From Planctomycetota bacterium (GTDB lineage Bacteria > Planctomycetota > Phycisphaerae > Phycisphaerales > Phycisphaeraceae), in contig JAJRRS010000128.1 in assembly GCA_024279275.1 (NCBI GenBank), positions 2,121 to 66,120 of the forward strand: DNA of 64,000 nt. The letters are read 5' to 3'. How positions within the stretch are numbered: the first letter of the stretch is position 1; each line of letters opens with the position of its first letter. The notes below the pieces were generated by a model. That model was not told the DNA's origin. It saw only the letters and a list, made by a program, of their open reading frames with translations, and did no database searches. Made by a program: the position numbers and the translations under genes. Positions 1,347-56,264 of this stretch are shown one piece after another.

Positions 1347-1388
1347 CCGTTTAGCGGCGGATCGCAGATCCGCGCGTTAGCCCAACGG
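1347..1388 (+). repeat. REP-like module J: CCGTTTAGC + hairpin GCGGATC-GCA-GATCCGC + GCGTTAGCC
   Basis: A near-identical copy lies at 9581-9621. It shares the 5-prime GTTTAGC with modules C and L. Confidence 0.85.
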
Positions 1389-6672: not shown

Positions 6673-7401
6673 CTACCCCCGCTTCACAATCATCGCCAGC
6701 CCAAGCCCCATCAAAACCAGACTCGCCGGCTCAGGCACAAACGTCGTATTAATCGTCAACGCATCCTTGCTGATCGTCGCCATCCCCCCCACCGCCGCAC
6801 TGGCAATCAAGTTGTTATCCATCGCGACGATCACATACGTCGTCTGGATACCCAGGTCAGCCAGGTCGATCAACGCCGCACCCAGCCAAGAGCCACTACC
6901 CGGGCCGTCAACCGGGAACACCGCCGCAGGCGCGGGGATCCCACCCGGGCTGATGACCATGTGAATCGGCTCTGCAAGCGTAATGAATTGTTGTGTCAGA
7001 TCGTCAAAGTACCGCACCGTCAAAGCCCCAGCCGCCGACACGCTCCCGCCTCCAACAATATCGTAGACCCCAGACTCAAAGATCGACAGCGTCCCGATAA
7101 ACAGCCCCGGGGCCGCATCAAACGTAAACTCCAACGCACCCGCTGTCAGGTCGGAGCTGTTATCACTGGCGCTCGCGGTGAACGAAGGCATGGCAAACGT
7201 CATCACATTGCCCGCCCCCGCAGAAGGTGTGCCGTACATCGGCAACGGATCGGTGATCGAGGTCTCGACAATATTGTCATACACCCCATCCGCCACCACG
7301 ACCGCCCCGGGATGCGCCAGGCTCGCTGCCGAAGCACACACAGCCCCCCCAAGCAACGCAGCAGCAGCCATCACACACTGTCCAGACTTGAACCTCAGCA
7401 T
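6673..7401 (-). CDS. PEP-CTERM sorting-domain secreted protein, function unknown
   Basis: The ATG at 7401 follows a GGGAGAAAGGGAAAG RBS. There is a signal peptide, and the C-terminus is VPEPASLVLMGLGLAMIVKRG. Confidence 0.75.
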   Translation of the reverse strand: MLRFKSGQCVMAAAALLGGAVCASAASLAHPGAVVVADGVYDNIVETSITDPLPMYGTPSAGAGNVMTFAMPSFTASASDNSSDLTAGALEFTFDAAPGLFIGTLSIFESGVYDIVGGGSVSAAGALTVRYFDDLTQQFITLAEPIHMVISPGGIPAPAAVFPVDGPGSGSWLGAALIDLADLGIQTTYVIVAMDNNLIASAAVGGMATISKDALTINTTFVPEPASLVLMGLGLAMIVKRG

Positions 7402-7644
7402 CAATTCTTTCCCTTTCTCCCATCCGCCCCATCGAACCCTCAGCCCCGACCCCCAGCACCCACCGGCCAAACAAAACCGGTGCAGATGAAATCTATCCCA
7501 CGCCCATAGGGAAGCTACTTGACTGTCATTTTTGGATGTAAATTGCCCCGATCTAATCGTTACAGATGGACCGCCCAGGAAATAATCATTGACCCGGTCG
7601 CGTAATCAGGGGTATACAGGGTCAACCTTAGCGGAACCTATCCC

Positions 7645-8988
7645 ATGAGAAAGACCGACAAGCCGATCATTGCCCTCACCGCCGTACTGATCCTCATCCT
7701 CACCGCCGCCCTTCTCATCAAAGCCGCCCCCACCTCCACCCCCAACGCCGCCCCTGAGCAACGCGAAGGCTCGGATATCCCCTCCCCCACATCATCAATC
7801 ATAAATCAAAAATCAGAAATCTCCCCCCCCTCCACCACCCTCGCCCCCAACGCCGTCCGCGGCGTCAACTACGCCCACATCCACCGCAACAACAAAGGCT
7901 ACGGCTCGGACGCCTCCAAACGCGAACTCACCAACCTACAAAACCTCGGCATCGACTGGATCGCAATCACACCCTTCGGCTACCAAAGCTCCGCCGACCA
8001 AAACCAGATCGCAGGCTACGACCCCAACCAACCCCTCTCCGCGTTTACCACAACCCCTCCCCCGTTTAGCCCGGTCGCCCGCGACCGGTCCCCTTCCCCA
8101 CTTCATCAATCAGCACTCACACATCAAACCTCCCCCCGCCCCTCCTCCACATCAGCACTCAGCACTCACACCTCAGCACTCACCCCCCGCCCCGGCCAAG
8201 ACCGCTCACTCACCGACCGCCACCTCGCCGAGCAAGTCGCCGCCGCACACCGGCTCGGCGTCAAAGTCCTCATCAAGCCTCACATCTGGTCACGCGACTT
8301 CTGGAACGGCGACGCCTGGCACGGCACCATCGAACAAAACTCACCCAAAGACCACGAATCCTGGCGAAAATCCTACCTACGATTCATCCTGCACCACGCA
8401 CAACTCGCCCAAGACACAAACGCCGAAGCTCTATGCATCGGCACCGAACTCATCAGCCAGACCACCCACCACCCCGACGACTGGCTCACACTCATACGCG
8501 AAGTCAAAAAAATCTACTCTGGCAAACTCACCTACGCCGCACACTGGGATCAGGAGTTCCAGGCCATCACCTTCTGGGACCAACTCGACGCCATCGGCAT
8601 CAGCGCCTACTTCCCACTGGATGCACCCGACAACGCAACCGTCAAACAACTCGTCGATGCCTGGCAACCTCACAAAAAACGGATCGAAGCGGCACACACC
8701 CTCTACAACAAGCCCGTCGTCTTCCTGGAAATAGGCTACCGCCCCGCCACAGGCACCTACCGCCAACCCTGGCTCGACCGCGGCGGCCAACCCGATCCCA
8801 TCGCACAGGCACGCGCCTACGAAGCCCTCTTCCAAACCTACGCCGACGAACCCTGGTGGCACGGCCTGTTCATCTGGAAAGTCTTCACCGACGCCCAAAG
8901 AAGCGATCACCACGGTACCGGCCCCGGCTACTCCTTCAGAAACCAACCCGCCGAGCAAGTCATCCAACAATGGTTCCGCCAACCCTGA
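7645..8988 (+). CDS. Membrane-anchored TIM-barrel glycoside-hydrolase-like protein (clan GH-A / GH113-like) carrying in-frame repeat insertions
   Basis: N-terminal TM helix, then GVNYAHIH..GYGS, WIAITPFGYQ, VLIKPHIW, CIGTELI, LTYAAHWDQE and FLEIGY motifs. The family assignment is by recollection only. Confidence 0.6.
   Translation: MRKTDKPIIALTAVLILILTAALLIKAAPTSTPNAAPEQREGSDIPSPTSSIINQKSEISPPSTTLAPNAVRGVNYAHIHRNNKGYGSDASKRELTNLQNLGIDWIAITPFGYQSSADQNQIAGYDPNQPLSAFTTTPPPFSPVARDRSPSPLHQSALTHQTSPRPSSTSALSTHTSALTPRPGQDRSLTDRHLAEQVAAAHRLGVKVLIKPHIWSRDFWNGDAWHGTIEQNSPKDHESWRKSYLRFILHHAQLAQDTNAEALCIGTELISQTTHHPDDWLTLIREVKKIYSGKLTYAAHWDQEFQAITFWDQLDAIGISAYFPLDAPDNATVKQLVDAWQPHKKRIEAAHTLYNKPVVFLEIGYRPATGTYRQPWLDRGGQPDPIAQARAYEALFQTYADEPWWHGLFIWKVFTDAQRSDHHGTGPGYSFRNQPAEQVIQQWFRQP
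7744..7821 (+). repeat. Module A variant (7744-7782) plus heptad module D (7788-7821) inside the CDS
   Basis: AACGCCGCCCCTGAGCAACGCGAAGGCTCGGATATCCCC and CACATCATCAATCATAAATCAAAAATCAGAAATC translate in frame as NAAPEQREGSDIPSPTSSIINQKSEI. Confidence 0.85.
8051..8200 (+). repeat. Module C REP (8064-8088) plus D-type heptads (8098-8192) inside the CDS
   Basis: GTTTAGCCCGGTCGCCCGCGACCGG followed by CAGCACT heptads translates in frame as PFSPVARDRSPSPLHQSALTHQTSPRPSSTSALSTHTSALTP. Confidence 0.85.
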
Positions 8989-9398
8989 TACGCACCCCCA
9001 ACCACCCATCATCCAACACAATATCAATCCCCCCCCCAACGCCGCCCCTGATCGCAGCAAAGCGGCGGGTATCCCCACCCTCCTCAGAACCCTCCCCCGT
9101 TTAGCCCGGTCGCCCGCGACCGGCTCCCCCCTCCCCCACGAAGCGCCGCGACTTGTCGCGCTCCCCCATCCCCACCCCACGCACCCACTCCACGCTTGCG
9201 GTTTAGCGCCCCTCTTCACCCCAGCACGCAAACCCCTCCCCCTCCCCACATCATCAATCAGCAACCGCAGGTCCGCGAAGCGAAATCACAATTCATACAT
9301 CTCCCCCCACCCCCTCCTCACCTCAGCAATCAGCACTCACACCTCAGACCTCCCCCACTTGGCCCAACCCCCCTCCCCCCGCTAGACTGATACACACC
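8989..9398 (+). repeat. Mosaic repeat cluster: A 9038-9076, C 9099-9123, B 9137-9160, an extra GTTTAGC at 9201, D-type heptads 9246-9350
   Basis: Each module matches copies in the 13.1, 15.0-15.8 and 16.8-17.7 kb clusters. Confidence 0.85.
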
Positions 9399-9471
9399 GG
9401 CCCTGTAGCCCAATGGCAGAGGCACGCGACTTAAAATCGCGCCAGTGTGGGTTCGAGTCCCACCAGGGCCA
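9399..9471 (+). tRNA. tRNA, 73 nt, class I cloverleaf, anticodon UAA by manual fold (isotype uncertain)
   Basis: Acceptor GGCCCTG/CAGGGCC, D arm GCC..GGC with GG in the loop, anticodon stem CGCGA/TCGCG with loop CTTAAAA, 5-nt variable region, T arm GTGGG-TTCGAGT-CCCAC, discriminator A. CCA is not encoded. Confidence 0.75.
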
Positions 9472-9580: not shown

Positions 9581-9621
9581 CGTTTAGCGGCGGATCGCAG
9601 ATCCACGCGTTGGCCTAACGG
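9581..9621 (+). repeat. REP-like module J, second copy
   Basis: CGTTTAGCGGCGGATCGCAGATCCACGCGTTGGCCTAACGG, compared with 1347-1388. Confidence 0.85.
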
Positions 9622-11158: not shown

Positions 11159-11183
11159 GTTTAGCCGCCGCGGCCACGCGGCG
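11159..11183 (+). repeat. REP-like module L: GTTTAGC + hairpin CGCCGCG-GCCA-CGCGGCG
   Basis: A reverse-complement copy lies at 56240-56264. Confidence 0.8.
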
Positions 11184-11293: not shown

Positions 11294-11327
11294 TTCGTTG
11301 TTTTATGGGTCCAAAACCCGTATTAAG

Positions 11328-11400
11328 TGGAGCTGACAGGGATCGAACCTGCGACCTTCTGTATGCCATACAGACGCTCTCCCAACTGAGCTACAGCCCC
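11328..11400 (-). tRNA. tRNA-Ala (anticodon GGC)
   Basis: The reverse complement is GGGGCTGTAGCTCAGTTGGGAGAGCGTCTGTATGGCATACAGAAGGTCGCAGGTTCGATCCCTGTCAGCTCCA. It has the G3:U70 Ala identity pair and anticodon loop ATGGCAT. Confidence 0.92.
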
Positions 11401-12417: not shown

Positions 12418-13131
12418 TTGAAACTCACGATCCACTTCGATGGCGGCTCGCGAGGCAACCCAGGCCCAGCATCCGCTGGCGTCGTTATCATCGCATCAGA
12501 CACCGGCAAACCCCTACACGAAGCCGGCTACTTCCTGGGCAAATGCACCAACAACGTCGCCGAATACCAGGGCCTCCTCCACTCCCTCGAACAAGCCAAG
12601 ACTCTCAAAGGCACCTCCCTCGATATCTACAGCGACTCCCAGCTCCTCGTCCGCCAGATCACCGGCCAATACCGCGTCAAATCCCCAGACCTAAAGCCAC
12701 TCTACCAGGAAGCCATCAAACGCCTCCACACATTCGACGACTGGAAAATCCAGCACATCCTCCGCGATAAAAACCAACGGGCCGATGAATTAGCCAACCT
12801 CGCCATGGACCACAAAGCCGACATCACCGCCGACACCCCACCCGCAACCTCCACTCCCAACTCAAGCCTCACCCCTCACCCCTCAACCCTCTCCACCACC
12901 CCCTGCTGGTCCGCCAAACTCACCGGCAAAGACGGCAAATGCATCGCCGGCTGCTCCACACGCAACGAATACACCTTCGGCCCAACCACCCCCGACGGCT
13001 TCTGCGTACACGCCACCCAAGCCATGCTCAACGACGGCCCACTCCAATGGAACCCCAAAAAACGCTCCGGAACCTCCCGCTGCCCAGCCTGCAACCTCAA
13101 CATTCAGATCAACATCATCCACCGCGGATAA
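12418..13131 (+). CDS. RNase HI-family domain fused to a Cys-rich C-terminal domain (TIGR04076-like)
   Basis: TTG start. IHFDGGSRGNPGPASAGVVI, NNVAEYQGLLHSLE, IYSDSQLLVRQ and NQRADELAN are RNase H motifs. The C-terminal region has CIAGCS...TPDGFCVHA...CPAC. Confidence 0.8.
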   Translation: MKLTIHFDGGSRGNPGPASAGVVIIASDTGKPLHEAGYFLGKCTNNVAEYQGLLHSLEQAKTLKGTSLDIYSDSQLLVRQITGQYRVKSPDLKPLYQEAIKRLHTFDDWKIQHILRDKNQRADELANLAMDHKADITADTPPATSTPNSSLTPHPSTLSTTPCWSAKLTGKDGKCIAGCSTRNEYTFGPTTPDGFCVHATQAMLNDGPLQWNPKKRSGTSRCPACNLNIQINIIHRG

Positions 13132-13474
13132 GCCCCCATCCCCCCTCAACCTCATCACCAACTCCCAACGCCGCCCCCTGAGCGCAGCGAAGGGGCGGAT
13201 CTCGCCTCCAAAACACTCTCTCCTGACCTTCCCCCACGAAGCGCCGCGACTTGTCGCGTCCCCTCTCCCCCATTTAGCCCGGTCGCTCGCGACCGGCTCC
13301 CCTCCCCACATCATAAATCGGGGCCTCTGAATAACCTCGGCGGAGGCTGATTTAGCAGCCGTGATTGCACGGAATCACACTCACTGAAGGGTTATTCAGA
13401 GATCCCAATCATCAATCACACATCATAAATCCCCCTCCTCCCCCCTCAAATACACATCGCTTTTAGCCGAACCT
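13132..13474 (+). repeat. Mosaic repeat cluster: A 13167-13202, B 13235-13258, C variant 13272-13296, D 13305-13320 and 13405-13435, unique 12-bp inverted repeat 13325-13336/13389-13400
   Basis: Module matches to the other clusters. The inverted-repeat arms are CTCTGAATAACC and GGTTATTCAGAG. Confidence 0.8.
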
Positions 13475-14005: not shown

Positions 14006-15037
14006 ATGCCCAATCAGCCCGCCAAACGCCGTAACTTCTTCGCCACATCCGACGGCATCTTCGTCGCATCTGCACTCCTGATGACCGCCTCCGCTGTCGT
14101 CGCGCTCACCGCCTCCGTCGTACTCGCCAAGGTCACCTTCCAGGACCACGCCACCGAACTACTCTCACAATACGCCGCCTACATCTTCAGCATCCTCCTC
14201 GCCATGGCCAGCCTCTTCGCTCTCATCGCCGGCGCAGTCCGCTGCGGGGTCTACGGCCGAGCCGGCGCACCCGCCCCCCAATCCGCCAACGACTCCGGCG
14301 ACGTCCTCACACAACTACAGATCATCTCCGACCGCATGCTCCTAAGCGACACCGCCAAACGCATCGCATACCGCCAGGAAGACGTCAACGCACTCCGCGA
14401 AGCCATCGCCGACGACATCAAACGCAAAGACTTCGACGCCGCTCTCGTCCTCGTTCAGGAAATGAGCCAGACCTTCGGCTACCGCGAGGAGTCCGAAGAA
14501 TTCCGCGAACAAATCATGGCCGCACGCAGCACCGTCATCGATGCACGCCTCACCGTCCTCCTCCAACGCCTCGACCAGATCATCGCCGCACACGACTTCC
14601 CACAAGCACTCTCAGACGCCCTGAAAATCATGCGGATCTACCCCGACCAGGTCCGCGTCCAAAACCTCGACCAGATCGTCAACCAAGCCCAGGAAACCTA
14701 CAAACACCAGATCGAACGCGACTTCCTCGCCGCCGCTCAGAAAGACGACGTCGACGGCGCTATCGCACTGCTCACAGAACTCGACGCCTTCCTCACCGAA
14801 CGCGAAGCAGAACCCTTCCGCGAAGTCGCAAGAGGCGTCATCGGCAAAAAACGCGACAACCTCGGCGTACAATTCAAGATGGCCGTCCACGACAAGGAAT
14901 GGCTCAAGTCCATCCGCGTCGGCGAACAAATCATCAAAGAATTCCCCAACACACGCATGGCCGAAGAAGTACGCGAACGCCTGGACCAACTCCGCGAACG
15001 CGCCGCCGGCCAACAAGCCGCCCAACAAGCCCGCTAA
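14006..15037 (+). CDS. Hypothetical membrane-anchored helical protein
   Basis: Two N-terminal hydrophobic helices and a long helical C-terminal region. Codon usage is consistent with the neighbours. No family recognised. Confidence 0.6.
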   Translation: MPNQPAKRRNFFATSDGIFVASALLMTASAVVALTASVVLAKVTFQDHATELLSQYAAYIFSILLAMASLFALIAGAVRCGVYGRAGAPAPQSANDSGDVLTQLQIISDRMLLSDTAKRIAYRQEDVNALREAIADDIKRKDFDAALVLVQEMSQTFGYREESEEFREQIMAARSTVIDARLTVLLQRLDQIIAAHDFPQALSDALKIMRIYPDQVRVQNLDQIVNQAQETYKHQIERDFLAAAQKDDVDGAIALLTELDAFLTEREAEPFREVARGVIGKKRDNLGVQFKMAVHDKEWLKSIRVGEQIIKEFPNTRMAEEVRERLDQLRERAAGQQAAQQAR

Positions 15038-15773
15038 CCCCATCTTCACCTGACACCACCACCCCAAAGCCGCAGGCTGCGAAGCTGCCGCGGATCTCCC
15101 CACGTTTCTCCCTCACCATCTCCCCCCTCCTAACGCCGCCCCTGAGCGCAGCGAAGATGCGGGTATCCCCCCACCACCAAAATACTGACCTTCCCCACGA
15201 AACGCCGCAACGTGTCGCGTCCCCCCTCCCCCGTTTAGCCCGGTCGCCCGCGACCGGCTCCCCTCCTCACATCATCAATCATAAATCAACAACCATAGGC
15301 CACCGAAGCTAAATCATAAATCCCCCTCCCCCACGAAACGCCGCGCCCCGGCACGCCTTTCCCTATTCCAAATCTGCGTCATCTGCGCAATCTGCGGACA
15401 CCTCCCCCTCCCCTCTTCACATCAGCAATCATAAATCACAATTCATACCTCCCCCTCCCCACATCAGCACTCAGCAATCACACATCAGCACTCCCCCCCC
15501 ACCCCCAACGCCGCCCCTGAGCGCAGCGAAGGGACGGGTATCCCCCCACCCCCGTTTACCTCAATCACTCACGCCCTGCCACGCCTTTCCCTATTCCAAA
15601 TCTGCGTCATCTGCGCAATCTGCGGACACATCCCCTCCCCACATCAGCAATCATAAATCACAATTCATACCTCCCCTCCCCCTCCTCACCTCAGCACTCA
15701 GCAACCGCAACTCCGCAAAGCGATATCTTCTCTCCACCGTGCAACTCCCTCCCACATCGCTACACTGTCCGCC
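15038..15773 (+). repeat. Largest mosaic repeat array: A 15132-15170 and 15507-15546, B 15196-15219 and partial 15332-15345, C 15233-15257, E 15351-15401 and 15580-15629, many D heptads
   Basis: A 735-bp gene-free interval composed almost entirely of modules separated by C-rich CCCCTCCCC linkers. It contains an internal ~100-bp duplication (15352-15454 vs 15580-15675). Confidence 0.9.
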
Positions 15774-16802: not shown

Positions 16803-16825
16803 CCCCCCCCAGTTTGCCCCTCCCC

Positions 16826-17647
16826 AACGCCGCCCCTGAGCGCAGCGAAGGGACGGGTATCCCCCACCCCTCCCCGTTTAGCCCGGTCGCCCGCGACCGG
16901 CTCTTCCACTCCCCCCTGCGACCGGCTCTAACCCTCTAAACCCGCGACAAACCCCCATCGCTGCCGCCGCAACCCCTGCCTCACCGGATTACCTTCGACA
17001 TACTTCACACACTGCCCCACACGCTCAGACGTATCCAGATAAACAATCCACCCACCCATCGCCCAAGGTGTCGGCACCCGACCGTGACGATCAACACACC
17101 CCGCCAGCGGGCGAACACCCTCAGCACTCATCCGCCTTGTGCCTGCACTTTTTAACCGCTGCGATATCTCTTCCCCGTCGAGCCTGTGCCGAGCAACCAC
17201 CATATGCACATGGTCCGGCATGATTGCACACGCATACACATTCAACCCTGTCTGCTCAATTACCTGCCCAAACCCACGCCCCACCGCCCGCGCCTGAACG
17301 CCCGTTAACCGTACCGGCGGGTACTTCAACACCCCTTGCATCTCGCGCCGTCGGCCACGGTCGTAATTTTGATGTGCCACCGATCGCGTCGTCTCAACCT
17401 TCGTCGCCATACCAAACCGTTGAAGATGTCTCGCCCAAACCCTCGTTGACCACGAACCCCGCGACTCATTGGGAAGCCAAAACCCATAGGTAGACCAGAT
17501 GATATGGGAAGCGATAGCCATCAGGATTCCACCGTATCAAAGATACTGGTCGCGGGCGACCGGGCAAACACAAGACGACACTCCCTCCCCCCATTTAGCC
17601 CGGTCGCCGCCTCCCCCTCCCCGTTTAGCCCGGTCGCCCGCGACCGG
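16826..17647. mobile_element. REPtron-like unit: RAYT-type transposase gene bracketed by module C REPs
   Basis: Module A lies at 16826-16865 and module C at 16876-16900. A partial C at 16918-16928 overlaps the transposase stop. A partial C lies at 17593-17608 and a full C at 17623-17647. Confidence 0.7.
16928..17521 (-). CDS. HUH/Y1 transposase of IS200/IS605 TnpA type, REP-associated tyrosine transposase (RAYT)-like
   Basis: HUH motif PDHVHMVVA and catalytic Tyr context VKYVEGNPVRQGL. It is 197 aa, has no partner tnpB and is flanked by REPs. Confidence 0.8.
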   Translation of the reverse strand: MAIASHIIWSTYGFWLPNESRGSWSTRVWARHLQRFGMATKVETTRSVAHQNYDRGRRREMQGVLKYPPVRLTGVQARAVGRGFGQVIEQTGLNVYACAIMPDHVHMVVARHRLDGEEISQRLKSAGTRRMSAEGVRPLAGCVDRHGRVPTPWAMGGWIVYLDTSERVGQCVKYVEGNPVRQGLRRQRWGFVAGLEG

Positions 17648-17725
17648 CTCTTATCTTTCTCACCGCCGCCTGGGACACCCTTCCCTCACCTCAGCAATCA
17701 GCACTCACACATCAGACCTCACCCC
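17593..17725 (+). repeat. Partial C, full C (17623-17647) and D heptads (17686-17725)
   Basis: The D module supplies the last four codons and the stop of the minus-strand CDS 17712..18329. Confidence 0.8.
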
Positions 17726-18329
17726 CACCCTCCAACCGCCGCATCATCCCACCCATCTGCTCCTTGAACCGCTGATGCTCCGCAGGATCGGTTTCACGTT
17801 GATGGGTCAGACGCCGCGACCCGTCGGCCAGGTAGTTCATCCGATGGGCCGTGTCGATCAGACGCTGATAATTCCGCACGATCGCCTCCTCTGCCCACAG
17901 CCGCGCGAACGGCGGAGTGTTCACATCGTGCGCCAGTCGCACCAGCCGTTGGATCGACGCCAAAATCAACCGCTGAAACTCGCCAAGCAACTCATCACCC
18001 AACGCCAGGTCAGGCGTCAATGCGTGGTCCTTACGGATGGCCGACCGGTCACGGCGGACAGTCCGCACACTGATCTTCATCAACTCCGCAATCTCCGTCG
18101 TCGAGAACCCCTCATGCGTCAGGTGATCCACACAACGCTGCCTCGTTTCCATCGGCAACTCTTTCGGCGAAACCCGCCCCGCATGTATCTGCTGCACCAA
18201 CGCCGTGACCGCCTCCCTGTCCGCCTCCGCCTTATCCCCAGCCCCTCCGGCCGAGGCGCATCGAGCCTCAACCTCCCCCACAACTTGTTCTGGATCGCCA
18301 GCCACAACAGAATCGGATGTCTGAAGCAC
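17712..18329 (-). CDS. Helix-turn-helix protein (sigma-70 region 4 / resolvase-type HTH-like), function unknown
   Basis: GFSTTEIAELMKISVRTVRRDRSAI. The remainder is helical and I do not recognise it. Confidence 0.55.
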   Translation of the reverse strand: MLQTSDSVVAGDPEQVVGEVEARCASAGGAGDKAEADREAVTALVQQIHAGRVSPKELPMETRQRCVDHLTHEGFSTTEIAELMKISVRTVRRDRSAIRKDHALTPDLALGDELLGEFQRLILASIQRLVRLAHDVNTPPFARLWAEEAIVRNYQRLIDTAHRMNYLADGSRRLTHQRETDPAEHQRFKEQMGGMMRRLEGGGEV

Positions 18330-18637
18330 TCGAAAAACCCCTTGAGAGGCGGTAACAACCGCGATTGACTGTACGGCTTATGTTAGGTATCATACCCAGC
18401 ATGGCCCCCACGATCAACCCCAGGCTTCACACTCAAAACAAGCCTTTCTCAAACCCAGGGCGGACGGCCTACCCCCAGAACCCGGACATCGCACAACCCA
18501 CGACCACCCAATCATTTACACCACTTATCACCTCACATGGGGGGAGGGGGCCGGACATGACCGCCCCACACAGTCCGACACAGGTTGCGTTATCCTTAAC
18601 CCCAAGATCACAAACCCTTCAACGAGAAACGCAAACC

Positions 18638-19509: not shown

Positions 19510-20970
19510 TTACCGCTTGATCGTCCCCAGATCAACCACCACCCCGCCGGGCTGATAATAGTCCACCCCCAACGTATCACGATCCAGAAACGTAAACACC
19601 ACCGCACTCGCCCGCAGCCGCTCCACGAATCCCAGATCCCCCGCACCAGGCCCCGCATACGAAGCATTATTAAACTGCTGTGCATGGAAATGATAATGAG
19701 CAAGCCCCGTATACATCCGTCGGATCAGCGCGTCAGACGAATAAAACTTCAGATCATGCAAACGAATCTCCGGCGGATACGCCAATGCAACAACCCGTCC
19801 ACCCTCACCAACCAACACCCCCCCATGCTCCGATGTCCTGTCAACCAAATCCCGATCCGCCTGCATGAACAACCCCGCCACCAACGCACGATCCGCCAAC
19901 GCATCAAGCAAGAGTTCGATCGTCATCAGGTCAGCGAAACACAACGACTCAGCATGGTCCGCCAAGGATTCCGAGGGCAACCCCAACGCAGCCCCCACCT
20001 CGGTACGAACCGTCCCCTGCCCAGGACCAATCAACCCTGCAACACGCGACAACAGCATGCCCTTACTCAACCCCGGGTCCGAAATACCAGCCATCATGAC
20101 CGTCGGCAGATGCCGCAGCTCAAGCCCCTCCCGCTGCTTGTCCGTCAACCGCCCAGCCGACCGCTGGGCACGCTCCCAATATGCCCCACCCGACTGGCTA
20201 CGTACCTGCATCAACCAAAGCACCGCCTCGCGATTCACCGGCAAAACGCTCAACCAACGCGCCGCCTTAAGATCAAGAATCACCGGCTCCCGCGAATCCA
20301 TCCCCAACAACAACCCCCGCGCCTGATCAGCACCCACCAGCCGATGCATCAAAACCCACGCATCCACTCGCGCCGCCGTCGTAACCGTTTCATCGTCACT
20401 GACGAACACCTCCCACACCGCCTGCTCAACCGTTACCCCCGGGTTCAGCGCCTCGATCGCCGCACGTTCCGGGGGAACCGGGGGAACCGGGGGAACCGGG
20501 GGAGCCGGGGGAGCCGGGGGAGCCGGGGGTTGATCGTCTGTGTAAAATCGCGATTGTTGTGCGTAGCTGCGCACCAGCGCCACCGTGAAACCCGGGTCGC
20601 CATGCTCCACCGCACGATCTATCAAGAGCTTTCGCACCGCCAAGAGATCAACCTCTCGAAGGTGTTCCCGCGCAGCAGCCCAAAACGCATCCTGATCGTA
20701 TTCAATCAGCCGATCCATCGACCACAACCGCAACGCCGTCGGCTGAGCATCCGACCACAGCACACGGTACATCACCGCCACCGCACGCCGAGCATCGGGC
20801 AGGTCAGACAGATTGCCTAATTGCTTCGCCGCCGCCAGACGCCGGCCCGGGTCTCTATCACGATCGAGCATCACCGCCAGCGGATCGGCCACGGGCGTCG
20901 GCCCACAACCCGACAGGGAGGCTAACAATGCTATTGAAACCACCAACCACCCGACAACTTGCTTCATCAC
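19510..20970 (-). CDS. Lipoprotein with a diverged JAB/MPN (JAMM)-like C-terminal domain
   Basis: MMKQVVGWLVVSIALLASLSGC lipobox. The C-terminus has SEHGGVLVG ... HYHFHAQQFNNAS...GAGD, which resembles but does not exactly match E..HxHx7Sx2D. Confidence 0.55.
   Translation of the reverse strand: MMKQVVGWLVVSIALLASLSGCGPTPVADPLAVMLDRDRDPGRRLAAAKQLGNLSDLPDARRAVAVMYRVLWSDAQPTALRLWSMDRLIEYDQDAFWAAAREHLREVDLLAVRKLLIDRAVEHGDPGFTVALVRSYAQQSRFYTDDQPPAPPAPPAPPVPPVPPVPPERAAIEALNPGVTVEQAVWEVFVSDDETVTTAARVDAWVLMHRLVGADQARGLLLGMDSREPVILDLKAARWLSVLPVNREAVLWLMQVRSQSGGAYWERAQRSAGRLTDKQREGLELRHLPTVMMAGISDPGLSKGMLLSRVAGLIGPGQGTVRTEVGAALGLPSESLADHAESLCFADLMTIELLLDALADRALVAGLFMQADRDLVDRTSEHGGVLVGEGGRVVALAYPPEIRLHDLKFYSSDALIRRMYTGLAHYHFHAQQFNNASYAGPGAGDLGFVERLRASAVVFTFLDRDTLGVDYYQPGGVVVDLGTIKR
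20469..20529 (+). repeat. 9-bp tandem repeat: CCGGGGGAA x3 then CCGGGGGAG x3 (+ partial), inside the CDS
   Basis: It encodes PPAPPAPPAPPVPPVPPVPP on the minus strand. The DNA unit is the same as at 41382-41413. Confidence 0.9.
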
Positions 20971-36810: not shown

Positions 36811-36893
36811 TCCGAATCTGTGTAATCTGCGCAATCTGCGGACACGCCCCTCCCCCGCTTTCTCCGTGTCTCTGTGACTCCGTGCGCTCCGTG
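36811..36893 (+). repeat. Module E (36811-36845) followed by module G (36862-36893)
   Basis: Matches 52-127 and the E copies at 15.3-15.6 kb. Confidence 0.85.
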
Positions 36894-37399: not shown

Positions 37400-37612
37400 A
37401 GATTGATGACCTGTGATGGATGATAGATGATGCGAGGAACAAGACTTAAACACAGAGAGTACAAAGCACACCAAGACACCGAGAAGATCAACACACCGCA
37501 CGAAGCGCCGCGACTTGTCGCGTCCCCTTCTTATCTGTGTCATCTGCGCAATCTGCAGACACTCTCTTCTTCAGTCCTCTTCCGATCCCTTCGCGCCTTC
37601 GTGGCTATCCTA
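37400..37612. repeat. Inverted D-type heptads (37400-37437), module B (37499-37522), module E (37533-37563), module H variant (37590-37612)
   Basis: TGATTGATGACCTGTGATGGATGATAGATGATG is the G-rich complement of the D modules. B and E are in direct orientation. Confidence 0.75.
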
Positions 37613-38948: not shown

Positions 38949-41471
38949 CTATTTCAATATCACCACAACCCGATGCTCACCGTTTGGTGCCTCAGGCGGC
39001 GGGATGACAGCCCCATCGATCCGTTTGCCATCGACCGTAACCGACGCAACGGTAAGACCCGCCCCGTCGGGACGTGTAACCTCGATGTGATACACATTGC
39101 TACGGTAACGCCTGGTCATCTTAAACCCCGGCCAATGCGACGGGATGCACGGGTCGATCAGCAACCCCTCCCATGTCGGCCGAACACCCATGATCGATTC
39201 CATCAGCACCCGGTAAACCCATGCCGACGATCCCGTGTACCACGTCCAGCCACCACGCCCATACAGCGGCGAGTCCGGACCATCGACATTCGCAGCCATG
39301 ACATAAGGCTCACACTGATACAACTTCGCGTCCATCCCCCGCTGCGGTGGCGACATCTTGCGGAACAAATTCCACGCCTTGTCAGGCCGCTTCAGTTGGC
39401 ACTCCATCTGAATAGCCCAGGCGGCGGCATGAGTGTACAGCCCGCCGTTCTCGCGCGTGCCCGCAGCATAGCGTGTCAGATATCCGATACGCGGGTCGGG
39501 GTTCGTGTAAGCCGGTTGCAAAAGTACCGCGCCGTAGTCCCGGTAGAGTTTTGTCTCCAGCGATTCGAGTACCGCCTCTTTGCGATCGTCGGGAACGATG
39601 CCGCTGAGGATCGACCAGACCTGCGGGTTCAGGTGGATCTTGCCTTCATGTGCGGTGTCGCTACCAACAAGCGTACCGTCGTCGCAACTCGCGGCCCAGT
39701 ACCATTGGCCGTCCCAACCATGAGTGTTTACCGCATCAGTGAGGCTCTTGATCTCCGCACGGTAATGTTCGACACGCTGCTGCTCTTGCGCGGGCAACTT
39801 GCCGTTTTTAATCGCACGTTCAATTGCGGGGCAGAACTCATTGAGGATCGCAACCAGGAACTGCGCCACCCAGACGCTCTCGCCCTTGCCTTCCCAACCG
39901 GTGACGGAAAACCCGTCATTCCAATCCCCGGTCCCGATCAACGGCAGCCCGCGTTCGCTGCGCTTAGAGAACGACCGTTCGATCGCCCGCGTGCAGTGTT
40001 CGTAAAGCGTGCCGGTGTGATCGGCATCAATCGCTTGATCGAGATAGGGCGCGGTCTCGTTGAAGATACCAAAGTCGGCTGTCTCTTTGAGGTAGTTGCA
40101 AGTTACAAATGGCAACCAGAGCAGGTCGTCGGAGAACTGCGACTCCATGCCGTCTTCCGTGATCGGGTGCCACCAGTGCTGGACGTGACCCGCCGAAAAC
40201 TGATGCGCCGCGTGGAGCATGATCTGCGCCTTGGTTCGCGTGGGGTCCAGGTGCAGGAAGAGTTGACTGTCCTGCAATTGATCCCGGTAGCCAAACGCCC
40301 CCCCGGTCTGGTAGTACGCGGTCCGCCCCCAGATACGCGACGACAGCGACTGGTACTTCAGCCAGCGGTTGACCATGAGGTTCACACCGTCGTCAGGCGT
40401 GTCGGCTTGCGATGCATCCATCCAGCGCGACCAGAACTTTTCAACCTCACGCATGGCCTTATCGACCGCGTCGGGTTGTTGATACTGTTGGACACTCTGC
40501 TCAGCTTGTTCGCTGGAATCAGCAACGCCCAGCGTAAATATCATCGTCTGGGATTCACCCGGTGCAAGTTCGACTGGCACACGCAGACTCGCCACCGAGT
40601 CGTCCCATCGGCCGGTCGTCTTGGCGACATATCCTCCTTCGCGCAACGCCATAGGCGACGCGTTCGTGCCGTACTGCCCGATGAAAGCTTCTTTGTTGCC
40701 GGACGCCGCAGAAGCGGGAAGGTCCACACTGTGGAACGCGACCTTGTCCCAATCACGGTTCCAGTGCTGCCCCTTTTCGTTTTGGATATCCCACATCCGC
40801 TTGGTGGCGAAGACCGCGCGATGGTCGTCTGCGAGTTGGGTTTCAAGAAACGTCTTATGAAACTCCCGGTGAGTGTCGGGCGCGACGCCTAAACACCATT
40901 CGAGATAGGACCAGACCGACAAAATCCGTTTACGCTTGCCTTTGTTAGTTAGCGTGAGCCGCCAGATCTCAACCGATTCACCCGGCGGAACTGTCAACGT
41001 CATCTGTGTCTCGACGTCTTGGTTGACTGTCGTGAAAGTAGTGTACCCGATGCCGTGTCTGCATTCGTATGATTCGTAATCCTTGCAGACAGGCTTCCAC
41101 GAGGGCGACCAGAACTCGCCGGTGTCTTCGTCGCGGATGTAGAGATATTTTCCACATGAGTCAGAAACCAGATCCTGGTCCCAGCGTGTAATGCGGTTAA
41201 GCCCCGCGTGTGTCTGCCACGAGTAACCGCCACCGATCTGTGAGACCACCAGGCCGTAGTCACCCGGGCAGATCACGTTGACCCAAGGCTTGGGCGTGTC
41301 CGGGCGCGTGATGACATACTCGCTGCCGTCGGCAGTGAAGTAGCCGTAGCCGTTGTCAAACAGCTTGCCTGACAGTGAGCTGGGGGAACCGGGGGAACCG
41401 GGGGAACCGGGGGCATTGACTTTCACGGGTTTGATAATAGGTCGGGTCACTCTAGTCACAACATACTCCAA
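38949..41471 (-). CDS. GH94-family glycoside phosphorylase (cellobiose/chitobiose/laminaribiose phosphorylase-like)
   Basis: FDNGYGYFTADGSEYVITRPDTPKPW, GGAFGYRDQLQDS and GTGDWNDG motifs. Length is 840 aa. The N-terminal 35 aa carry the 9-bp repeat. Confidence 0.88.
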   Translation of the reverse strand: MEYVVTRVTRPIIKPVKVNAPGSPGSPGSPSSLSGKLFDNGYGYFTADGSEYVITRPDTPKPWVNVICPGDYGLVVSQIGGGYSWQTHAGLNRITRWDQDLVSDSCGKYLYIRDEDTGEFWSPSWKPVCKDYESYECRHGIGYTTFTTVNQDVETQMTLTVPPGESVEIWRLTLTNKGKRKRILSVWSYLEWCLGVAPDTHREFHKTFLETQLADDHRAVFATKRMWDIQNEKGQHWNRDWDKVAFHSVDLPASAASGNKEAFIGQYGTNASPMALREGGYVAKTTGRWDDSVASLRVPVELAPGESQTMIFTLGVADSSEQAEQSVQQYQQPDAVDKAMREVEKFWSRWMDASQADTPDDGVNLMVNRWLKYQSLSSRIWGRTAYYQTGGAFGYRDQLQDSQLFLHLDPTRTKAQIMLHAAHQFSAGHVQHWWHPITEDGMESQFSDDLLWLPFVTCNYLKETADFGIFNETAPYLDQAIDADHTGTLYEHCTRAIERSFSKRSERGLPLIGTGDWNDGFSVTGWEGKGESVWVAQFLVAILNEFCPAIERAIKNGKLPAQEQQRVEHYRAEIKSLTDAVNTHGWDGQWYWAASCDDGTLVGSDTAHEGKIHLNPQVWSILSGIVPDDRKEAVLESLETKLYRDYGAVLLQPAYTNPDPRIGYLTRYAAGTRENGGLYTHAAAWAIQMECQLKRPDKAWNLFRKMSPPQRGMDAKLYQCEPYVMAANVDGPDSPLYGRGGWTWYTGSSAWVYRVLMESIMGVRPTWEGLLIDPCIPSHWPGFKMTRRYRSNVYHIEVTRPDGAGLTVASVTVDGKRIDGAVIPPPEAPNGEHRVVVILK
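41382..41413 (+). repeat. 9-bp tandem repeat GGGGGAACC x3 (+ partial) inside the 5-prime end of the GH94 CDS
   Basis: It encodes PGSPGSPGSP on the minus strand. The unit is identical to 20469-20495 but read in a different frame. Confidence 0.9.
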
Positions 41472-56239: not shown

Positions 56240-56264
56240 CGCCGCGTGGCCGCGACGGCTAAAC
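56240..56264 (-). repeat. REP-like module L, inverted copy
   Basis: The reverse complement is GTTTAGCCGTCGCGGCCACGCGGCG, compared with 11159-11183. Confidence 0.8.

Follow-up and report, generated by a model that had tools for sequence, protein, structure and literature searches.

Among domesticated transposases that coexist with non-autonomous repeats, the best documented are those paired with repetitive extragenic palindromes (REPs), namely the REP-associated tyrosine transposases (RAYTs), and to our knowledge nearly all of what has been learned about such pairs comes from Proteobacteria. Here, we describe a RAYT-like gene of the HUH/Y1 tyrosine transposase type, and the hairpin repeat around it (REP-1), in a 64-kb stretch of DNA from a Planctomycetota bacterium, referred to below as the window. 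We put at roughly 80% the probability that the two form a REPtron, in which a single-copy, vertically inherited RAYT (a class-2-like HUH enzyme of the TnpAY1 type) has copies of its own cognate REP on both sides. In the REPtron of Escherichia coli K-12 (TnpAREP/YafM, structure 4ER8; subclass 2.2; PMC3479197, PMC6006769, PMC8266576), where the HUH/Y1 gene is single copy, as it appears to be here, a TnpAREP monomer binds the folded REP and holds its GTAG foot; A3 and G4 of the foot specify cleavage at C^T, and a 5'-phosphotyrosine link is formed before strand transfer (PMC3479197, PMC8266576). A second TnpAREP/REP group, the Stenotrophomonas type, has perfect palindromes (PMC8266576). In the classification of Quentin et al. 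(PMC6006769), the tyrosine motif Y---NP marks class 2 (the RAYTs), Y---Q marks the insertion sequence (IS) family IS200, and Y----Q marks a planctomycete-rich class 3. For Planctomycetes, REPs with tyrosine transposases were reported in 2013 from Rhodopirellula baltica (PMC3733652), and the planctomycete-rich class 3 TnpAY1 proteins were reported in 2018 (PMC6006769). These papers, and the automatic naming by the Joint Genome Institute (JGI) of many relatives of the window protein as "REP element-mobilizing transposase RayT," show that the RAYT/REP kind was already known, and the original prediction for this locus, which held such a system, with this many co-resident module types, to be as yet uncharacterised in a Planctomycetota-like genome, overstated its novelty.

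The original prediction of an HUH/Y1 protein with a C-terminal tyrosine motif was borne out by the translation of the gene, a 197-residue product that contains both AIMPDHVHMVVA and CVKYVEGNPVRQGL. The HUH motif is H104-V-H106 (PDHVH) and the catalytic tyrosine is Y174, within YVEGNP; in an alignment with 26 relatives of the window transposase, H104, H106, Y174, N178, and P179 are invariant, and by the criterion of PMC6006769 the arrangement Y174...N178-P179 makes the protein class-2-like. The suggested search with the Pfam model Y1_Tnp (PF01797) gave 24.1 bits, barely above the cutoff of 23, and the NCBIfam REP_Tyr_transpos equivalog model NF047646 matched all 26 aligned relatives at an E value of ≤1e-3, the best being 2.6e-14. 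Searching the Protein Data Bank (PDB) with the single sequence gave only marginal matches, among which ISDra2 TnpA was the best by sequence, while a family profile matched ISDra2 TnpA at 2.6e-5 and E. coli TnpAREP (4ER8) at 6.6e-4. The profile alignment to 4ER8 spans W..W...Y...NPvk.G..W.F, that is, P-W-..-W, the catalytic tyrosine, N-P-V-K-.-G, and a distal W-.-F; YVEGNP of the window protein aligns with YIYINP of TnpAREP, and both proteins have Y---NP followed by NPVK.G...W.F. An AlphaFold model of the window transposase (predicted local distance difference test score, 86; predicted template modelling score, 0.82) had Y1 transposases, either IS200/IS605 TnpA or TnpAREP, as all of its best 30 PDB structural matches, and 4ER8 gave the lowest root mean square deviation (3.8 Å) and the top query-normalised TM-score (0.49).

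We also found differences from the described subclasses. Identity to TnpAREP is about 11% in the structural alignment, and the window protein has about 60 residues inserted between β1 (residues 4 to 11) and αA (residues 74 to 91), a conserved insertion that carries YGFWLPN[DE].RGSWS... in the family; in addition, the tail after the tyrosine helix is 22 residues long here and about 50 in E. coli, and W-A stands in place of the E. coli W-Q. The RAYTs of the Pseudomonas and Stenotrophomonas RAYT-REPIN systems (Bertels group 3, subclass 2.5; PMC3116915, PMC5581495) are single copy and vertically inherited, as the window gene appears to be, but subclass 2.5 has the motifs DH[LF]H, WQ, and YI[VI]ANP where the window protein has DHVH, W-A, and YVE.NP, and its median length is 151 aa rather than 197 aa. 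The class 3 TnpAY1 proteins of Planctomycetes and Acidobacteria (PMC6006769) share with the window protein a planctomycetal host, a W[TA] motif, an enlarged core, and a REPtron-like arrangement with flanking secondary structures, whereas Y----Q, NHVH, and a CnGA foot there contrast with Y---NP, DHVH, and GTTTAG here, the comparison being one of descriptions. The combination of DHVH, W-A, YVE.NP, 197 aa, and a ~60-residue insertion fits none of the 12 subclasses tabulated in PMC6006769.

The 25-nt REP-1 sequence, GTTTAGCCCGGTCGCCCGCGACCGG, occurs exactly at 8064, 9099, 15233, 16876, and 17623 and with two mismatches at 13272, all six on the plus strand, and it was not found once in 100 dinucleotide-preserving shuffles. 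These are the sites given by the original prediction, including an exact copy at each flank of the gene, and the partial copies that it placed nearby are also present, one of them overlapping the stop codon (Table 1). Searching with the 18-nt palindromic core revealed a seventh copy, on the minus strand at 17545 to 17568, in which one tag base is deleted and one stem position is mismatched. This copy and the plus-strand copy at 16876 to 16900 flank the gene with inverted REPs, the classic REPtron layout, so the view that the flanking REPs are unusual in sharing one orientation does not hold; nor is the repeat scattered through the window, since all seven copies are confined to 8.06 to 17.65 kb. 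Inverted copies of a hairpin likewise flank the E. coli gene, and there too the unpaired 5' foot is conserved and ends in A-G. As single-stranded DNA, intact REP-1 is predicted to fold into an unpaired 5' foot, GTTTAG, a 7-bp stem, and a 4-nt loop (-8.4 kcal/mol; z = -2.8). The E. coli REP has a GTAG foot in place of GTTTAG(C) and a bulge that its enzyme needs; the window stem is short and perfect, as in the Stenotrophomonas-type group (PMC8266576) and the Pseudomonas/Stenotrophomonas RAYT-REPIN systems. The partial copy at 16918 to 16929 duplicates 16893 to 16904 and overlaps the TAG stop codon by 2 nt.

The association between hairpin and gene, with the inverted layout, extends across the family, which numbers hundreds of relatives. 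We analysed 80 metagenome loci, 71 of which had enough flanking DNA for counts in 250-nt flanks. At 53 of these 71 loci, the two flanks share an exact inverted repeat of 12 nt or longer, and TTTAGC is present in 41 upstream flanks and its reverse complement in 40 downstream flanks, compared with only 6 + 4 occurrences in the gene bodies. The flank consensus is G-T-T-T-A-G-C followed by a G+C-rich stem. In the collinear locus L006 (a Phycisphaeraceae metagenome-assembled genome [MAG], GCA_029260695.1), the REP layout is that of the window, including an additional inverted copy farther upstream; a 68% identical homologue (L007) is preceded by GTTTAGCCCGGTCGCCTGCGACCGGG, at a distance of 55 nt, and followed after 13 nt by the exact reverse complement of that sequence, and inverted flanking hairpin copies are also found at L088, L089, and L090. 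Longer homologous loci hold extra singlets and inverted doublets kilobases away from the RAYT gene. Inverted doublets beside the gene and elsewhere (L088, L089, and L022) are also a feature of the RAYT-REPIN systems, whereas the dispersed copies in the window are singlets of one orientation.

The hairpins themselves share a fixed design. The A-G of the foot is invariant, and 80 of 106 unique tagged hairpins have one geometry, with a 4-nt loop beginning exactly 9 nt after the G of TTAG. Among 45 distinct hairpin sequences, all seven stem pairs have changed on both sides, and compensated stem cells number 103 compared with 31 in shuffles, a signal that breaks down once the partner is shifted by a single column. 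A covariance model of the tag plus stem, built like the stem statistics from sequences preselected for carrying a tag with a hairpin behind it, gave 114 matches at an E value of ≤0.01 in 517 kb of homologous loci (85 loci), and 90 of the 114 lie within 300 nt of a RAYT gene. Tagged-hairpin density is 2.0 per kb near the RAYT gene, 0.055 per kb elsewhere (a difference of ~37-fold), and 0.02 per kb inside the gene. In one relative, L088 (62% identical), the same hairpin carries a plain GTAG foot, a link between the tagged hairpins and the GTAG superfamily that Di Nocera et al. described (PMC3733652). The REPs of that superfamily in R. baltica (GTAG-20 and GTAG-21) and Opitutus terrae are also tagged palindromic repeats found with tyrosine transposase genes, in the same Planctomycetes-Verrucomicrobia-Chlamydiae (PVC) superphylum, with several REP families per genome and REPs in frame in coding genes; most members of the present family differ in having two extra T residues (GTTTAG).

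Several observations indicate that the RAYT gene is a resident gene. It is present once in the window and once per locus in all 83 loci screened, and the RAYT protein clusters are mostly each on a single contig. No tnpB was found among its neighbours or anywhere in the window, and these neighbours are an isocitrate/isopropylmalate dehydrogenase (Iso_dh) and a helix-turn-helix (HTH)/sigma-region-4 protein; the original description of a single transposase lacking tnpB and IS ends is thus upheld, with inverted flanks. IS200/IS605 elements (IS608 and ISDra2) have the same fold and HUH/Tyr chemistry and act on a hairpin plus 5' guide in single-stranded DNA, but they are multicopy and autonomous, with Y---Q, same-strand ends, and often tnpB, none of which is seen at the window locus. 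Positions 18597 to 16624 of the window are collinear with L006 at 71% nucleotide identity, with the common gene order hydrolase, HTH protein, RAYT, and dehydrogenase. Between the window RAYT and its 77% identical orthologue in L006, the rate of nonsynonymous substitution (dN) is 0.167 and that of synonymous substitution (dS) is ~1.0, for a dN/dS of ~0.17; judged from these sequences, purifying selection acts on the gene, which keeps an orthologous position. The L006 orthologue (7236 to 7829) is full length when started at GTG 7236, and the public L006 RAYT protein (P0026; 136 aa) is called from an internal ATG. The plus-strand GC skew over the window gene is -0.35 although the gene is coded on the minus strand, and sharing the extreme local skew in this way argues for long residence. 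Other relatives occupy different neighbourhoods, so the position of the gene is not fixed across the whole family.

We also asked where REP-1 occurs away from the gene. Four of the window copies lie 1.6 to 9 kb from it, and an exact-pattern search located the 25-mer at seven sites in two other Phycisphaeraceae MAGs (six and one, respectively), none of which falls within the 8-kb locus of a RAYT. The MAG copies are identical from GTTTAG through CCGG, in otherwise unrelated surroundings. The copy at 8064 is translated as FSPVARDR in the open reading frame (ORF) 7645 to 8988, hence is not extragenic. A segment of ~40 aa (...PPPFSPVARDRSPSPLHQSALTHQTSPRPSSTSALSTHTSALTP...) in the encoded glycoside hydrolase family 113 (GH113)-like protein corresponds to this REP plus two copies of another repeat, module D, and is missing from ten aligned homologues (58 to 72% identity). 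Since the REP-bearing segment is found here alone, it constitutes an insertion difference, the nearest that these data come to direct evidence of mobility. The GH113-like gene (plus strand) has two in-frame repeat mosaics, of modules A and D at 7740 to 7835, in an N-terminal linker common to homologue P0122, and of the REP plus two D modules at 8054 to 8195, in a surface loop and absent from the ten homologues; the NCBI annotation covers the full 447-aa product.

These same sites bear on an alternative in which the hairpins are selected host regulatory or structural elements (mRNA 3' stabilisers, terminator-like elements, or protein-binding sites) and the HUH protein is a domesticated single-stranded DNA or RNA processing factor that binds them without moving them. 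Five of the six plus-strand copies are in sense with plus-strand genes, located within them or just downstream, an identical 25-mer in three species-level genomes would fit purifying selection, and the REP copy number is apparently low while the RAYT gene has been kept for a long time. However, the copy in a coding segment that homologues lack points to insertion rather than to a regulatory site inherited from an ancestor, the sharp edges of copies at independent sites, whose flanks are unrelated, fit mobility, and the catalytic residues are invariant in the family. No T-run follows the stem of any window REP-1 copy, and with one copy coding we rejected a terminator role for the window copies; three of the seven MAG copies are followed by GTTTT(TT), and for those a terminator-like role may hold. 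We consider this alternative unlikely, and it is also compatible with a REPtron; E. coli REPs serve both roles.

Within the window, the REPs are embedded in C-rich mosaics together with at least four other repeat modules and CCCCTCCCCC linkers, all on the plus strand. REPs in mosaics with other short motifs are also known as bacterial interspersed mosaic elements (BIMEs) in E. coli, a likeness of architecture alone. Such mosaics could suggest that the system is dead, the RAYT being an inactive relic and the nearby REPs having spread inside larger C-rich mosaics by local duplication, recombination, or slippage. Seven REP-1 copies do lie within 9.6 kb amid modules A, C, D, and E between CCCCTCCCCC linkers, the order C-REP-D recurs at 13232 to 13319 and 15193 to 15280, and the REP adjacent to the ATG is degenerate. 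We regard this explanation as less probable still, given a full-length gene with all invariant residues and the dN/dS value above, five copies that are identical over exactly 25 nt in differing surroundings, and a 25-mer that stands alone, without mosaics, in other genomes. Least probable of all is an autonomous IS200-type element whose hairpins are subterminal left and right ends moving with the gene, since, despite the shared fold and chemistry, the rank of ISDra2 TnpA as best PDB sequence match, and hairpins directly outside both gene ends, the protein has Y---NP instead of Y---Q and scores lower with the IS200 model than with the RAYT model, the gene occurs once in the window and once in every locus, without tnpB and at an orthologous position, and the hairpins are one sequence inverted rather than two same-strand ends and are found alone at many gene-free sites; one of the findings that the original prediction named as refuting it, an ordinary IS200 TnpA, was not made.

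Fold, motifs, family scores, genomic context, residence, and flanking hairpins thus agree on the REP-associated transposase in a REPtron-like unit that was originally proposed. A number of observations weigh against this conclusion. For the window protein, the sequence for which a bit score against the NF047646 cutoff is given (the 26 relatives are described by E value), the score is 45.2 bits and the cutoff is 80; the fit to a RAYT profile held insofar as this model outscored the IS200 equivalog model NF033573 (24 bits; cutoff, 55) and failed at the model's own threshold, which speaks against membership in the curated proteobacterial-type equivalog and not against membership in the wider RAYT class. 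W153 is followed in the family by A, G, or V and never by Q, where the E. coli W-Q contacts GTAG, and most family members have the foot GTTTAG(C) in place of the canonical GT[AG]G. The way in which the family hairpins were chosen accounts in part for their percentage of paired cells but not for the fixed foot, the geometry, the stem diversity, or the clustering near the gene. In the window the start-proximal REP is degenerate, with intact equivalents upstream of the homologues in L006 and L007. The dispersed REP-1 copies all have one orientation inside multimodule mosaics, and among the non-REP modules only module C has, in these data, a link to a RAYT, through a near-identical hairpin beside a single homologue. 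The exact 25-mer is sparse in the two MAGs, and E. coli has hundreds of REPs compared with the seven REP-1 copies counted within 64 kb here; a high genome-wide copy number, which is a hallmark of REPs, is putative in this case. Finally, enzymatic activity and transposition are predicted for this RAYT by analogy.

If the locus is a REPtron, the mechanism may be modelled on E. coli TnpAREP (PMC3479197, PMC8266576). The REP would be a 25-nt single-stranded DNA element, with an unpaired 5' foot GTTTAG(C), a 7-bp G+C-rich stem, and a 4-nt loop, and the RAYT would bind this folded hairpin on single-stranded DNA, the foot presumably being read by residues around W153 and W158. Cleavage would be carried out by Y174 with a metal held by H104 and H106, probably at a C^T set by the A-G of the foot, and strand joining by the RAYT would then copy or move REPs. 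As a hypothesis only, the longer foot, the change from W-Q to W-A, and the conserved post-β1 insertion could mean that the foot is read in a modified way. In all five MAG singlets and all six plus-strand window copies, GTTTAG lies on whichever strand is locally C-rich, with replication and transcription as candidate causes. That cleavage takes place at the CT of the CCCCTCCCCC linkers stays speculation, as the MAG copies lack these linkers.

The strand asymmetry of the region is itself unusual. The plus-strand GC skew is -0.26 to -0.42 (with an AT skew of up to +0.3) from ~7.6 to 36.6 kb, in genes of either orientation, ~0 at 38 to 47 kb, and +0.04 to +0.14 beyond 47 kb, with a cumulative-skew minimum at ~46 kb. 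The skew of the 7.6- to 36.6-kb region is far above the usual bacterial strand bias and is independent of gene direction.

The coordinates of the gene, the hairpins, and the mosaics are collected in Table 1, in which bit scores are those of the covariance model of tag plus stem (R1) used to score hairpins in the window.

Table 1. The RAYT gene, REP-1 copies, other tagged hairpins, and repeat mosaics in the window
Feature	Position	Strand	Remarks
RAYT-like HUH/Y1 tyrosine transposase gene	16928-17521	-	197-aa ORF
REP-1, intact	16876-16900	+	Exact; 27 nt downstream of RAYT stop, inverted relative to gene; 36.6 bits
Partial REP, 12 nt, GCGACCGGCTCT	16918-16929	+	3' arm GCGACCGG plus CTCT; read from sequence
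REP-1, degenerate, GTTT-GCCCGGTCGCCCGCGACCAG	17545-17568	-	Orientation of gene; 24 nt upstream of ATG; 13.2 bits, weak
REP-1, truncated, ATTTAGCCCGGTCGCCG	17593-17609	+	ATTTAG tag plus 5' arm, without 3' arm
REP-1, intact	17623-17647	+	Distal upstream of RAYT; head-to-head doublet with 17545-17568
REP-1, exact	15233-15257	+	Dispersed; intergenic mosaic downstream of gene 14006-15037
REP-1, 2 mismatches	13272-13296	+	ATTTAG tag, loop CTCG; downstream of RNase H-like gene 12418-13131
REP-1, exact	9099-9123	+	111 nt downstream of GH113-like gene, upstream of tRNA-Leu
REP-1, exact	8064-8088	+	In frame inside GH113-like gene 7645-8988
REP-3, GTTTAGCCGCCGCGGCCACGCGGCG	11159-11183	+	REP-1 tag and geometry, other stem; 38.1 bits
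REP-3, second copy, GTTTAGCCGTCGCGGCCACGCGGCG	56240-56264	-	28.9 bits
REP-2, GTTTAGCGGCGGATCGCAGATCCGCGC	1349-1375	+	Third tagged hairpin type; 16 bits, weak
REP-2, second copy	9582-9608	+	15.3 bits, weak
Further tagged hairpin, single	13350-13375	+	GTTTAGC foot, different stem
Mosaic regions	7735-8200, 9030-9370, 13160-13445, 15120-15730, 16815-16930, 17580-17735	+	
Further mosaic stretches	46-86, 36816-36856, 37496-37573	+	
Module A			AACGCCGCCCCTGAGCGCAGCGAAGGG.CGGGTATCCCC
Module B			The REP
Module C			CACGAAGCGCCGCGACTTGTCGCG
Module D			CACATCAGCAATCAGCACTCACACATCAGACCTC
Module E			ATCTGCGTCATCTGCGCAATCTGCGGACAC

Besides REP-1, the window holds the other tagged hairpins listed above, and the source genome probably has several REP subfamilies. 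Module C (9134 to 9161, 13232 to 13259, 15193 to 15220, and 37496 to 37523) is near-identical to a head-to-head hairpin doublet at L087 (4233 to 4260), which precedes a 44% identical RAYT homologue by 58 nt, and may be the REP of a second RAYT. The upstream neighbour of the L087 homologue appears isocitrate dehydrogenase-like in our own reading of its translated 3' end. Modules A, D, and E were absent from all 90 related loci searched. Module A folds no better than shuffles do (z = -0.04) and hence is not called a REP. A permissive Rfam scan of 7.0 to 18.5 kb found two tRNAs alone, so no mosaic module is a described RNA family; the region contains tRNA-Leu(TAA) at 9399 to 9471 (plus strand) and tRNA-Ala(GGC) at 11327 to 11400 (minus strand), and the tRNA-Leu gene lies directly downstream of a mosaic, with a REP-2 hairpin 110 nt later.

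Long Pro-, Ser-, and Thr-rich ORFs cross the C-rich mosaics (14899 to 15312, 17499 to 18368, 17504 to 17767, and 8433 to 9104, all plus strand; peptides such as PRLARSPATGSPP). These are most likely artefacts of repeat composition and not genes, and the short Pro/Ser-rich ORFs called across the mosaics are probably artefacts as well. Elsewhere in the window, tandem 9-mers, (GAACCGGGG)n, occur at 20457 to 20538 and 41368 to 41431, 21 kb apart, and repeats of 82 to 113 nt (families D1 and D3) recur at 37.7, 47.6, 51.8, and 54.2 kb inside large minus-strand genes, where they look like repeated protein modules.

The protein branch with the ~60-aa insertion and the fixed-geometry GTTTAG(C) foot appears undescribed in the literature searched, with no planctomycete RAYT sequence or GTTTAG motif for comparison in the supplements of PMC6006769 and PMC3733652. 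We found 1,293 family matches in a 90%-identity collection, with mostly Planctomycetota source names, and at least 265 representatives at 50% identity with E values of ≤1e-30. A bolder proposal, which we hold tentatively and think somewhat doubtful, is that these proteins are a TnpAY1/RAYT subclass outside the 12-subclass scheme, widespread in Planctomycetota, whose invariant ~60-aa insertion plus W-A reads a 6- to 7-nt foot (GTTTAGC) whose distance from the loop is fixed, and that the enzyme or its paralogues assemble the multimodule C-rich mosaics at C^T sites, landing in frame in genes and strictly on one strand of the extreme-skew region.

The RAYT family described here is large and apparently mainly planctomycetal, with a fixed foot, a fixed foot-to-loop geometry, and covarying stems. 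The fixed foot and covarying stems together amount to a clean natural experiment in guide and hairpin recognition by Y1 enzymes, and specificity swaps could draw on the protein-DNA pairs that the family supplies. The REP lying in frame within a glycoside hydrolase loop indicates that REPs shape coding sequence in this organism.

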